16,293 bases of DNA, from IMG/VR virus record IMGVR_UViG_3300042296_001032; one strand, 5' to 3'. The notes below the pieces were generated by a model. The model was not told the origin of the DNA and did no database searches. It saw only the letters and a list, made by a program, of their open reading frames with translations. The stretch comes from a virus. Taxonomy: Duplodnaviria; Heunggongvirae; Uroviricota; Caudoviricetes. The position numbers and the translations under genes were made by a program. Positions 2,050-16,041 of the stretch are shown here, in pieces. Position 1 is the first letter of the stretch; every line of letters starts with the position of its first letter.

Positions 2050-2550
2050 TTATAATTTCAATTTTTTAATATTTTTTCTAGGGTTCATACTATTACTGTA
2101 ATAATTTTGTATAGTTATATAACCACATAAACCTTTTTTATATTCTAAAACTTCTTCAGGTGTACATTGCCTTTCATGTAATACCATAACTTCAGGTATC
2201 TCACTCTCATTGGCCCTAACAGACCTAACTACCATTTGTGGTGTAGTGTTATCTGTTCTATTACAAACGAAGATAATATCTAAATCCATAGATTCATCTA
2301 ATTCAACCCTATATCTATTAAGTAGACCGTTATCATAATAATATTCTGATAAGAGTTCAATTAGTTTTGGGTTCATTATTACAGTATCTCCACCTCTCCT
2401 CAAAGAAGAACGATGTATTTGTGTAGAGACTTGGTTAATTCTTGTTATAAGGGTTTTATTCCACTCAGGTTGGATGTCATCCATATCAGTCATATTTTGC
2501 CAACCCGTATAATCCCAAATTGTGGTATGTTTACAGTCACCTATATTCAT
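2050..2550 (-). CDS. Truncated gp23-like major capsid protein homologue (C-terminal portion only)
   Basis: EWNKTLITRINQVSTQIHRSSLRRGGDTVIMN...GLLNRYRVELD aligns by eye with T4 gp23 ESFKALLFQIDKEAVEIARQTGRGEGNFIIAS...GVLGGKYRVYID (recalled from memory). Only 166 aa. Confidence 0.65.
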   Translation of the reverse strand: MNIGDCKHTTIWDYTGWQNMTDMDDIQPEWNKTLITRINQVSTQIHRSSLRRGGDTVIMNPKLIELLSEYYYDNGLLNRYRVELDESMDLDIIFVCNRTDNTTPQMVVRSVRANESEIPEVMVLHERQCTPEEVLEYKKGLCGYITIQNYYSNSMNPRKNIKKLKL

Positions 2551-12131: not shown

Positions 12132-12164
12132 AAAACAAAAAAAAGGCCACATTTCTGTGACCTT
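12132..12164 (-). terminator. Intrinsic terminator after tRNA
   Basis: Minus strand AAGGTCAC-AGAAAT-GTGGCCTT (8-bp stem with one G:U pair) followed by a long T run. Confidence 0.8.
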
Positions 12165-12169
12165 ATTTG

Positions 12170-12242
12170 AGCGTAACGATGAGATTCGAACTCTCGTCTC
12201 CTACCTGGAAGGTAGGTATTCTAACCACTAAACTAGTTACGC
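12170..12242 (-). tRNA. trnG: tRNA-Gly (anticodon UCC); CCA not encoded
   Basis: Acceptor GCGTAAC/GTTACGC, discriminator U, D loop with GG, anticodon stem CCTAC/GTAGG around CT-TCC-AG, T loop TTCGAAT. The T stem carries one extra A. Confidence 0.93.
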
Positions 12243-13202: not shown

Positions 13203-13811
13203 TTAATTTAATCCTTTATTAATATCTGACAAAACTGAGTTGACTAGTTGTGAACCTATTTTTTGGTTCCAAAATCTAGTTTGATGGACTGTTTTTTTAG
13301 CTTCTGAATGGACAATTTTCCAATCATCTTCTCTATTAATAAAAGAAACCATTTCATCATCTAATAGAACAGACCTTAAAGTACTTAATAATTTATCTAT
13401 CTTTTCCTCATAATCTTCTTTACTTAAAGTTTTTCTATTTGTTTCACTATCTTCGTATGTGTCTGCAAAGATAATACAAAATTCGACAATTGGATTCTTT
13501 TCTGGATTTTTTGGGTTAAAAATTAATTCACTATTTTTTTTAGAGGAAACCTCATTTAATAAAAGTGACATCATATTTTCTATATCAAAGTTTGTTCCAA
13601 CTCTTCTATACAATCTACGACAAATAGGTATGTACACATTATCAAATATTTCAAATACGTCTTTAGGTATTTTCTTTAATGCTTGTTCAGATAACAACAA
13701 TCTAGTTGCGTTATCATAAACTTGTGCAAGTTCTTCTTTTTCCCATACAGGTAGACCTTCTAAAAGACCTAAAGATTCCCACCTTTGTATTACATTTAAT
13801 ATATCACTCAT
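13203..13811 (-). CDS. Protein with N-terminal region resembling the gp23 major capsid protein N-terminus, plus unrelated C-terminal domain
   Basis: IQRWESLGLLEGLP...LAQVYDNA...YIPICRR aligns by eye with T4 gp23 LNKWKPLLEGEGLP...IAKIFENQ...VMGMVRR (recalled from memory). Confidence 0.6.
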   Translation of the reverse strand: MSDILNVIQRWESLGLLEGLPVWEKEELAQVYDNATRLLLSEQALKKIPKDVFEIFDNVYIPICRRLYRRVGTNFDIENMMSLLLNEVSSKKNSELIFNPKNPEKNPIVEFCIIFADTYEDSETNRKTLSKEDYEEKIDKLLSTLRSVLLDDEMVSFINREDDWKIVHSEAKKTVHQTRFWNQKIGSQLVNSVLSDINKGLN

Positions 13812-14479
13812 AAAGATAAAATCGATTTAGTTGTTACAAATTCTAATGGAACCTCATTCGATAAAGGTCCAACTATTTGGTCAGGGTATGGATTTTGTTT
13901 TTGTTCTATAATATCATCCTTTCTGAAAGGCATACCTCTTAAAGTTCTATTAGCATCTTCAACAACTTTAACAGCATAACCCCTTCTTAATAAACCTTTA
14001 ACCGTTGGTCCGACATCAATACCATAAACCAAAAAGATTGGTCTTTGCATAATAGGAATACCTAAATTATGTATTAAAGATTCTGAATAAGTATTACCCT
14101 CAAAAAAATCCATAGTTCTTTTAGTGACAACTATTTGGTCACTTTGGTGTATGTCGTGAAATGCCAAACCTGAAGAAGAATTCCAATCCATTAAAAAATA
14201 AGATTCAGGTGATGTTTCTTTAAGAAATTTAGCACCCTCAGTGTTTATTAAACAATGTTTTGGAAAGGTGTCTTTGTAGTTAGGGTTATCTGATAAGTGT
14301 TTGGCATTTTCAGTATACCAACCAGCTATATTAATAACTTTAGCATTTCTAATTTTAGCATACTGTGTTAAATCATTAAGATTTGTTAGTATACTATCAG
14401 AACTGGGTATTTTGTAGGAACCAGTAAAAAAATCCCTTTGCGTATTTACGTTAATAAATATTGGAAATAAATCTTCCAT
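13808..14479 (-). CDS. Nicotinamidase/isochorismatase-family homologue, probably catalytically inactive
   Basis: INVNTQRDFF.G, FPKHC...T.GA, VTK and GY.V.VVEDA motifs fit the cysteine-hydrolase fold, but the catalytic Asp and Cys positions are substituted. Confidence 0.8.
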   Translation of the reverse strand: MEDLFPIFINVNTQRDFFTGSYKIPSSDSILTNLNDLTQYAKIRNAKVINIAGWYTENAKHLSDNPNYKDTFPKHCLINTEGAKFLKETSPESYFLMDWNSSSGLAFHDIHQSDQIVVTKRTMDFFEGNTYSESLIHNLGIPIMQRPIFLVYGIDVGPTVKGLLRRGYAVKVVEDANRTLRGMPFRKDDIIEQKQNPYPDQIVGPLSNEVPLEFVTTKSILSL

Positions 14480-15126
14480 TATAATGACCTTAATTTAGCT
14501 TGTGTTATTACCTCAGCCATATCTCTAAGTACATTACTTTTTTCAAACCACATTACTGCGATTAAAGATTTAGCGTCAATCAATTGGTATGGTGGCATCA
14601 TTTTAGATTCTTTACCAACTTCCATATTAAACCCTGTTGGGTCATCAAAAAATAGTCTACCGTTTAGACCTAACTTTTCTACTTCAACAATAGAAATGTT
14701 TTCATCTCCAATACCACCACCTTTATTTACTCTCTCACTAACCTCACAATAAAACAATGATATAATTTCAGTTGTTCTTCCTGGTGAGGTGTAGAAATCA
14801 CTTATATGGTTTGTAAAATCTACCTTATAACCTGTTTCCTCCATGATTTCTCTTTTTATTGCTTGTTCGTGTTTTTCACCTTTGTCTACACTACCAGCAA
14901 CTACTTCTACCATAACACCTTCAGCACCAGCTCTGTACTGTTCAACAAAGATGTATTTTTTCTTAACCGTATCAAAAATAATAGCGGCAACACAATCTGG
15001 TATTTTTAAGATTTCTCTTTTAGTTTCTTTCTCACCATCACTGATTGTGAGTTCTTCTATTTTAGAAAAGCTATTATATAAAGTTTTTCTATCTTTTACA
15101 CTGTAATTAGTTATAACATTTTCCAT
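14479..15126 (-). CDS. nudF: Nudix hydrolase, ADP-ribose pyrophosphatase-like
   Basis: Intact Nudix box GSVDKGEKHEQAIKREIMEETGY, preceded by FVEQYR...EVVAG and followed by YTSPG and IDAK, as in ADPRase-type enzymes. Confidence 0.85.
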   Translation of the reverse strand: MENVITNYSVKDRKTLYNSFSKIEELTISDGEKETKREILKIPDCVAAIIFDTVKKKYIFVEQYRAGAEGVMVEVVAGSVDKGEKHEQAIKREIMEETGYKVDFTNHISDFYTSPGRTTEIISLFYCEVSERVNKGGGIGDENISIVEVEKLGLNGRLFFDDPTGFNMEVGKESKMMPPYQLIDAKSLIAVMWFEKSNVLRDMAEVITQAKLRSL

Positions 15127-15372: not shown

Positions 15373-16041
15373 CTAGAAGGAATAAATAGCGTCAGGTAAA
15401 CGTCTTCTAGCGTAAGTTACCCAAGTATTTAATAGTTTACTTGATTCTTCTCTTGAAAGGTTCCCCAACATAATTTCATGGTTTAAGTCATCCATCATTA
15501 CAATATCCAAAGGTTTCTTTTCTATTTTGGCCCTTCTATAAAACCCATGTACTAAAGCCTCAACTTCTGATGGGTCCATGTGATGTTCAAAGGTAGATTC
15601 ATAATCTGCTGTATATTCTATGTTAGGTTGTTGTCTATCCGAAAAAATTCCTTGTAATAGATGTTCCAACTCATGTCTAACATCCTCGTTAATTTTATAA
15701 AAAATTTCTTCGTAATATTCTTTATCGTAATTGTTGTTAATTAAAATCTCAACGTTAAGATAATCCTCATCATCAATATACGATTTAACATAATAAGGTA
15801 TTTCTTCACCATTATGTTCTATATTATCATTTGTTCTTAGAATAGTTAATTCTACATTAATATTTAAGTTTGGCCCTTGGTAATATTCTTCTCCGTTTTT
15901 TTCAAAAGGCAATGAAAAATATTCAGATTCATCATAACTACCCTCAGTTTCTTTAATGCAACTAATAATATCCCTACTAATAATACGGGTCAATGAATCA
16001 TACTTACCTTCTAATAATATTTGTTTTTTGGTTTTAATCAT
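15373..16041 (-). CDS. HExxH zinc-metallopeptidase-like protein with N-terminal LLE tag
   Basis: Starts MIKTKKQILLEG. Contains VRHELEHLLQ and a downstream EVEALVHG. Confidence 0.8.
   Translation of the reverse strand: MIKTKKQILLEGKYDSLTRIISRDIISCIKETEGSYDESEYFSLPFEKNGEEYYQGPNLNINVELTILRTNDNIEHNGEEIPYYVKSYIDDEDYLNVEILINNNYDKEYYEEIFYKINEDVRHELEHLLQGIFSDRQQPNIEYTADYESTFEHHMDPSEVEALVHGFYRRAKIEKKPLDIVMMDDLNHEIMLGNLSREESSKLLNTWVTYARRRLPDAIYSF

Follow-up and report, generated by a model that had tools for sequence, protein, structure and literature searches.

A freshwater phage protein family with an N-terminal module copied from the T4-type major capsid protein, encoded beside NUDIX and isochorismatase-like genes

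The window analysed here, a stretch of 16,293 nucleotides, is the reverse strand of bases 169154–185446 of an IMG/VR virus record of 195,712 bp (30.7% G+C, CheckV completeness 59%). In this large uncultured lake phage, the gene 13203..13811 encodes an intact, mostly helical protein of 202 amino acids (aa) that is under purifying selection. On sequence comparison, only residues ~7–74 of this protein are derived from the major capsid protein (MCP), being copied from the N-terminus of the T4-type MCP of the lineage, and the protein probably works by imitating new shell protein. The 202-aa family is new and well populated, and its genomic context is both fixed and unusual. As a variation on MCP paralogy and propeptide-mediated targeting, it is not demonstrably a new system; a literature search found no description of stand-alone gp23 propeptide modules. 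The features of the locus are listed in Table 1.

Table 1. Positions of the 202-aa gene, its parts and the neighbouring and related features (window positions unless marked as genome positions).
Feature	Position	Strand	Description
202-aa gene (ORF)	13203..13811	minus	202 aa, ATG start; capsid N-terminus module plus a region with no relatives except the 133-aa paralogue family
Residues 7–74	13590..13793	minus	homologous to MCP propeptide and N-arm start (MCP ~25–90)
Residues 40–42, L-S-E	13686..13694	minus	alignment with MCP I-S-E and the T4-type L-T-E maturation site
Residues 75–137	13401..13589	minus	helical, conserved F-C-x-x-F-A-D-x-Y-E-D, common to the 133-aa paralogue family
Residues 138–202	13206..13400	minus	helix, beta-hairpin, helix; conserved N-K-G tail
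Isochorismatase/nicotinamidase-like gene	13808..14479	minus	PF00857, 28.3 bits (cut-off 27)
NUDIX hydrolase gene, YffH/AdpP (ADP-ribose pyrophosphatase-type)	14479..15126	minus	TIGR00052, 93.1 bits (cut-off 79.6); PF00293
HExxH gene	15373..16041	minus	222 aa; syntenic, upstream of the NUDIX gene
tRNA-Gly(TCC)	12169..12242	minus	
Terminator-like hairpin	12143..12164	minus	follows tRNA-Gly(TCC)
Second MCP-derived gene	2050..2550	minus	matches MCP 417–461, 47% identity, E 7e-14
133-aa mini-protein gene	85571..85972 (genome)		paralogue family member in this record

Since the MCP is missing from the 59%-complete record, in which no full capsid gene but only small ORFs with gp23-like pieces were found, the comparison rests on the MCPs of relatives. 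These were taken from G001 (318 kb, 96% complete), G002 (380 kb, 100%) and G003 (210 kb), each of which has an orthologue of the 202-aa gene and one gp23-type MCP of 589–607 aa with PF07068 matches. Residues 7–85 align with MCP residues 25–100 at 34% identity (BLASTP, E 6e-10), and the family profile matches the profile of the three MCPs (hhalign, probability 95.7%, E 1e-8) as well as that of 25 MCPs (probability 96.8%, E 2.9e-10). As an independent test, five further records were picked by their MCP only and then searched with the family HMM; the single match in each was the MCP N-terminus (profile positions 8–72, E 1e-10 to 6e-9). A truncated MCP N-terminus was also recovered at E 7e-4 by an exhaustive phmmer search of 1.8 billion proteins. 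The first-pass annotation had read residues ~7–66 as following the N-terminus of T4 gp23. This resemblance holds for the MCPs of the lineage but not for T4-type gp23 itself (Tequatrovirus N2), to which the match is not significant (BLASTP E 0.97; hhalign probability 9%), and the profile search against gp23 families that it had proposed likewise gave no PF07068 match in Pfam at E ≤ 1, in contrast to the lineage MCP profile.

Residues W11, G15, L20, A29, P62, I63 and R66 are invariant in the family, its paralogues and the MCPs. The same motifs can be recognised in Rhodothermus phage RM378, whose MCP is the closest cultured relative of the lineage MCP, and, on inspection by eye, in T4-type gp23. 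Within the protein, conservation is highest in the module, with a mean pairwise identity of 53% compared with 31–43% for residues 75–104 and 138–202, and its predicted helix-loop-helix-helix pattern matches that of the MCP N-terminus, for which a poor AlphaFold2 (AF2) model (pLDDT 49.7) was used for its secondary-structure pattern only. Divergence from the capsid protein after the N-terminal region, as previously noted, is seen beyond about residue 75–85. In the MCPs, residues 1–120 are at least 82% identical across the 120 top-scoring clusters out of at least 8000, which points to a lineage of great abundance whose propeptide is under unusual constraint.

In T4, the prohead protease removes the first 65 residues of gp23; the N-terminal region is disordered and lies inside the prohead before expansion, and the residues after the cleavage site form the N-fist and N-arm after expansion (PMC9958956). 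In the multiple alignment, the T4-type L-T-E corresponds to I-S-E or I-N-E of the lineage MCPs and to L-S-E of the 202-aa protein. From this cleavage-site alignment, residues 1–42 correspond to the propeptide, and residues 43–74 to a shortened N-fist and the start of the N-arm (P-I-x-R-R). The maturation-site Glu (MCP E60) is invariant in 25 lineage MCPs. At the homologous site of the 202-aa family, Glu is kept in seven of the 26 members, with Lys, Asp or Asn often found instead, and no other conserved canonical cleavage site was seen among the 26. The family as a whole therefore does not conserve processing at the homologous site, and it does not have a conserved (L/I)-x-E ending an N-terminal targeting segment.

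The T4 Gol peptide, a 29-residue region of gp23 with a 20-residue core, binds EF-Tu and activates the Lit protease (PMC3014915). As the first-pass annotation had stated, the homology reaches the start of the Gol-equivalent segment: it ends near P-I-x-R-R, the first residues of that segment, followed by weak similarity up to residue ~85. Unlike in Gol, the MCP core that follows (N-D-I-V-S-V-Q part) is not kept; the alignments reveal that its hallmark V-Q-P part is missing from the 202-aa protein, and the 29-residue region with its 20-residue core that would mark a Gol-type Lit activator was not found. The Lit/Gol-type reading is thus without support. Lit/e14 is a system of E. coli, and no Lit-like protein was detected near 13203..13811.

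The gene was originally described as a fragment, yet it belongs to a full-length conserved family with MCP-derived sequence in the first third only. A search of 5.8 billion proteins by word index recovered at least 200 full-length homologues (197–211 aa, query coverage 97–100%, identity 48–99%), all unnamed or hypothetical save one that its source labelled "phage pi2 protein 07". The exhaustive HMMER search of 1.8 billion cluster representatives recovered 27 clusters, which consist of short proteins except for two long repetitive proteins with weak partial matches. Pairwise dN/dS values are 0.10–0.28, alike in the N-terminal third and the remainder, and 0.07–0.22 within the MCP-like module, all of these figures being approximate because dS is near saturation. 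The family is widespread in freshwater phages, and the phage DNA was seen repeatedly in lake-water metagenomes dated 2020 to 2024, with 23 lake-water DNA runs containing the stretch. The single public RNA run yielded four small contigs of a related strain, none covering 13203..13811, and has no bearing on expression.

The AF2 model, built from a 26-sequence alignment, comprises eight helices and one beta-hairpin (pLDDT 88.5, pTM 0.70) and integrates the MCP-like module into a compact helical fold instead of leaving it as a free tag. With regard to an HK97 fold, the model is helical with one hairpin, its 202 aa are far fewer than the 589–607 aa of the MCPs, and no capsid protein appeared among the Foldseek or VIA matches. 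Searches of the protein against Pfam, PHROGs, NCBIfam and PADLOC gave nothing significant, 13203..13811 had no match in 50,697 phage records (tblastn, megablast), and the PDB sequence search with the family profile returned a chance match alone (E 0.8). Foldseek searches (PDB, BFVD) and VIA-align (48,161 chains) gave no informative match to the model; the best Z score, 6.7, was on helical bundles, one uncharacterised Myoviridae protein was matched at E 0.027, and no enzyme-like or ligand-binding fold was among the structure matches. PvcA-like matches in the ESM Atlas (scores 0.87 or lower) were dismissed as noise.

Outside the module, the motifs F-A-D-x-Y-E-D and T-R-x-W-N-Q-K and the N-K-G tail are strongly conserved. 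Residues 3–137 match a family of 133-aa mini-proteins (hhalign, probability 99.1%, E 4e-19) whose common architecture is the MCP N-module followed by a helical region ending in E-x-C-x-x-F-[AS]-[ED]-x-Y. The 202-aa protein has the same architecture, with 65 extra C-terminal residues and without the K-H-K-L tail. The 133-aa family matches the MCP N-terminus better than the 202-aa family does (probability 98.6%, E 1.4e-15) and shows a weak second collinear match to MCP 346–399 (probability 39%, E 3.2e-4), a segment that comprises a strand and the beginning of the D-A-E-A-E-L-bearing helix. By transitivity, the F-C-x-x-F-A-D-x-Y-E-D region may thus descend from the D-A-E-A-E-L helix, the derivation of residues 105–125 from this MCP spine helix via the 133-aa family being weak (probability 17–39%). 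It would then be suggested, though no more firmly than that, that both families are MCPs minus the E-loop and insertion domain. Residues 138–202 have no detectable relatives outside the 202-aa family, and residues 127–202 have no detectable profile similarity to the MCP. A derivation of residues 127–202, with the W-N-Q motif, from MCP 382–456 was not supported (hhalign E 0.4–0.6, different register); the helix-hairpin-helix order of these residues parallels MCP 384–456 in the low-confidence MCP model.

The module is kept in three small genes of this genome, 13203..13811, 85571..85972 and 87717..88031, while complete genomes with the 202-aa family have one copy each, plus the MCP. A different piece of the capsid protein is carried by 2050..2550. 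As the first-pass annotation had recognised, the two genes correspond to non-overlapping parts, MCP 25–100 for 13203..13811 and MCP 417–461 for 2050..2550. Its view of them as a pair kept together does not extend to relatives: no stand-alone orthologue of 2050..2550 was found in G001–G003, G009 and G010, and G001 and G002 have an orthologue of 13203..13811 only, so conservation does not tie the two genes together.

The first-pass annotation had proposed a decoy or assembly-regulator role, whereas the genomic context points to a link with two enzyme genes. The fixed context of the gene is a cassette with the AdpP-type NUDIX gene first, followed by the isochorismatase-like gene, and the 202-aa gene third. 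The isochorismatase-like gene directly precedes the 202-aa gene in all 12 related IMG/VR loci (12/12), and the ATG of 13203..13811 overlaps the stop codon of the upstream gene (ATGA). The NUDIX gene precedes the isochorismatase-like gene, mostly adjacent to it, with up to about 3 kb between them in a few loci, and a gene or domain with a conserved HExxH motif lies upstream of the cassette in the 12 related loci. In the complete genomes of G001 and G002, the three cassette genes are all present and adjacent. All three are absent from the complete genomes of G009 (345 kb, terminal repeats) and G010 (294 kb), whose MCP is of the same type (61–64% identity). This joint presence and absence indicates that the 202-aa gene is accessory and co-inherited with two enzymes acting on NAD-cleavage products. 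With a sample of two genomes with and two without the cassette, the pattern may represent one evolutionary event. The tRNA-Gly(TCC) and the hairpin behind it probably close the long co-directional gene array as the end of a transcription unit; the only sizeable RNA-library contig (12173–12466) covers this ORF-free tRNA region.

How the imitation would work can be stated only tentatively. The reading we prefer, which we hold as possible, is that, in the assembling head, the MCP-like module docks on whichever partner the MCP propeptide binds. The kept residues are those of all gp23-type propeptides (K/R-W, G-x-L-x-G-L, P-I-x-R-R), which suggests that the same partner is probably bound, and the retention of the module in three separate small genes suggests that it is useful outside the shell protein. 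We infer that the module has a portable function, of which the simplest would be binding what the inward-facing N-terminus of the MCP binds. By such mimicry the module would engage the same partner as that N-terminus, most likely the scaffolding core or the prohead interior, and docking would bring the 202-aa protein, perhaps also its operon partners, into or to the assembling head. Since the maturation-site Glu is not conserved, most members of the family would remain uncleaved, as docked proteins and not as processed cargo. For the giant phage SPN3US, the authors of the study infer that long N-terminal propeptides probably target inner head proteins into heads (PMC5694885). In a T4-type genome, an internal head protein gene is located about 1 kb from a nudix gene, so the non-structural context is no objection to docking. 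Against docking, however, the homologous (L/I)-x-E site is kept in only seven of the 26 members, the module is integrated in a compact fold, and the 202-aa gene is missing from two complete genomes of the wider lineage and so not needed for head assembly. The tight linkage to two NAD-product enzymes fits a metabolic or counter-defence role equally well.

The counter-defence role could take the form of a decoy, a possible but somewhat doubtful reading, in which the module mimics nascent capsid protein and blocks or titrates a host sensor or factor that recognises the conserved MCP N-terminus; the decoy would belong to a cassette that also clears ADP-ribose and nicotinamide, the breakdown products of NAD. 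The accessory, co-inherited cassette with its AdpP-type NUDIX and nicotinamidase-like genes is consistent with this, the near constancy of MCP residues 1–120 among the 120 best-scoring of thousands of clusters would make them a good sensor target, and the first quarter of T4 gp23 binds EF-Tu and triggers Lit (PMC3014915). A soluble, uncleaved mimic would also be in keeping with the lost protease-site Glu. However, the protein matches no PADLOC or anti-defence family, the V-Q-P part of the Gol-equivalent core is absent, and a decoy resembling the trigger could itself activate the sensor. Moreover, the family has diverged as fast as the neighbouring enzymes (45–72% identity), unlike typical fast-turnover anti-defence genes. 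The metabolic role would be that of an exapted fold, which we regard as rather unlikely: the MCP-derived helices would have become a structural or regulatory subunit for the isochorismatase-like and NUDIX enzymes, with the capsid link gone. The invariable adjacency and joint presence or absence of the genes, the ATGA overlap, which suggests translational coupling, the single compact helical protein predicted by AF2 and the strongly conserved motifs outside the module all agree with such a subunit. It does not explain why the residues kept in the module are those common to MCPs as distant as that of Rhodothermus phage RM378, or why two other mini-genes of the same genome keep the module outside the cassette, and it finds no echo in an enzyme-like or ligand-binding fold.

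A role in head assembly itself, as a regulator or chaperone that pairs with the MCP N-terminus or acts as a pseudo-substrate of the prohead protease and so times folding, assembly or cleavage, is unlikely. The shared secondary-structure pattern with the MCP N-terminus (low-confidence MCP model) and the frequent Lys, Asp or Asn at the P1 Glu position of the homologous cleavage site argue for it. The gene, however, is absent from two complete genomes with the same MCP type, lies far from the head genes, and encodes a protein without similarity to known assembly factors in Pfam and PHROGs. Finally, the locus might be gene debris, with the 5′ end of the capsid gene duplicated and now decaying, or the motif match a coincidence, as the missing Pfam gp23 match and the non-significant direct comparison with T4 could suggest. 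This is hardly credible and is refuted by the at least 200 intact full-length homologues, the dN/dS values of 0.10–0.28 and the E values of 1e-8 to 1e-10 against lineage MCPs, and the conserved synteny also speaks against it. The first-pass annotation had named a frameshifted pseudogene as one case in which its reading would fail; the full-length homologues, the dN/dS values and the confident model show that the gene is not one.

The docking reading and the decoy reading could each be extended to the cassette as a unit, an extension that we consider distinctly unlikely. The propeptide mimic would either load or anchor the ADP-ribose and nicotinamide enzymes in the head, from which they would be delivered into the next host, or blind an NAD-depleting sensor, the host sensor of nascent capsid protein being blocked while the two enzymes clear the products. 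If true, this would be a new mode of action, in which the targeting or recognition module of a structural protein serves as a portable address or decoy. The family is tractable, being widespread in freshwater, with a confident model and kept propeptide residues, and tied to two enzymes of known chemistry. Identifying the partner of the module would reveal what the motif that is universally conserved in gp23 propeptides binds in T4 head assembly, and whether phages reuse this motif as an address tag or an immune decoy.

Several known systems can be compared with the family. The W, G-x-L-x-G-L, A and P-I-x-R-R positions of gp23-type MCPs (PF07068) are common to residues 7–74. Unlike these MCPs, the 202-aa protein has no HK97-fold body apparent in its model, no PF07068 match and no conserved cleavage Glu, and its gene is located in a NUDIX/isochorismatase-like cassette distant from the head genes. 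Similar to T4 gp24, the vertex protein and classical whole-gene paralogue of gp23, it is the product of a capsid-gene duplication kept under selection. However, gp24 has a whole HK97 fold and builds vertices, whereas the 202-aa protein keeps the N-terminal module only, with which it could not form a shell. The targeting sequences of T4 internal proteins and Alt and the SPN3US propeptides (>100 aa) likewise put a prohead-facing N-terminal segment on an unrelated body (PMC5694885), and the copy in the window has L-S-E at the homologous cleavage position. In contrast to these segments, it is a copy of the MCP propeptide itself and not a short tag, and its cleavage motif is not conserved in the family. 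The T4 gene 61.1-type ORF of 54 aa, located beside the primase gene, is also a small stand-alone gene resembling part of the gp23 N-terminal region; in Tequatrovirus N2 (Escherichia phage N2, L121:728-892), it matches gp23 57–95 at E 2.9e-4 within that genome. This match makes it a precedent, in a T4-type phage, for part of the capsid N-terminus being copied into a gene of its own. It differs from the 202-aa protein in covering another stretch, around and after the cleavage site, in being far shorter, and in having a short IP-type leader and no extra domain.

Several further observations concern the neighbours and the capsid genes. The PF00857 match of the isochorismatase-like protein covers residues 8–92 only and is barely above the cut-off. 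The D-V-G-P-T-V found by eye at the position of the expected catalytic Cys indicates that it may not be a canonical nicotinamidase. The NUDIX proteins (14479-15126; L008-L019 homologues) have a conserved basic tail at the C-terminus, K-[ILM]-[RK]-S-[LI]; the tails of the capsid-derived mini-proteins, K-H-K-L and K-K-L-K-L, are similar, and the two may represent a common C-terminal signal. The 222-aa HExxH protein has a fully conserved R-H-E-[IL]-E-H motif (L010-L013, L019 homologues). Some relatives encode it as a separate protein with a K-K-x-I-L-L-E-G leader, and elsewhere it is the C-terminal domain of proteins of 710–1154 aa, one of which also has a MIB_HERC2 domain. It was considered as a Lit-like protein and rejected, with no match to Peptidase_U49 or any other Pfam family even at E 10. 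A late promoter was sought in 83 MCP upstream regions, which gave A-rich leaders and no usable motif; the leaders of the lineage capsid genes (L032-L111) are short and A-rich, and no Shine-Dalgarno-like motif is present in them. G001:C1:77670-77813 is what remains of a capsid N-terminal module, interrupted by an in-frame TAA, and looks like a decaying third copy. In addition, gp23 profile segments occur in permuted order in small ORFs of 78, 141 and 196 aa: G000:C1:118469-119090, outside the window, has profile positions 304–366, then 132–195, then 18–48, and both G001:11337-11696 and G004:27399-27758 have positions 143–196, then 2–48.
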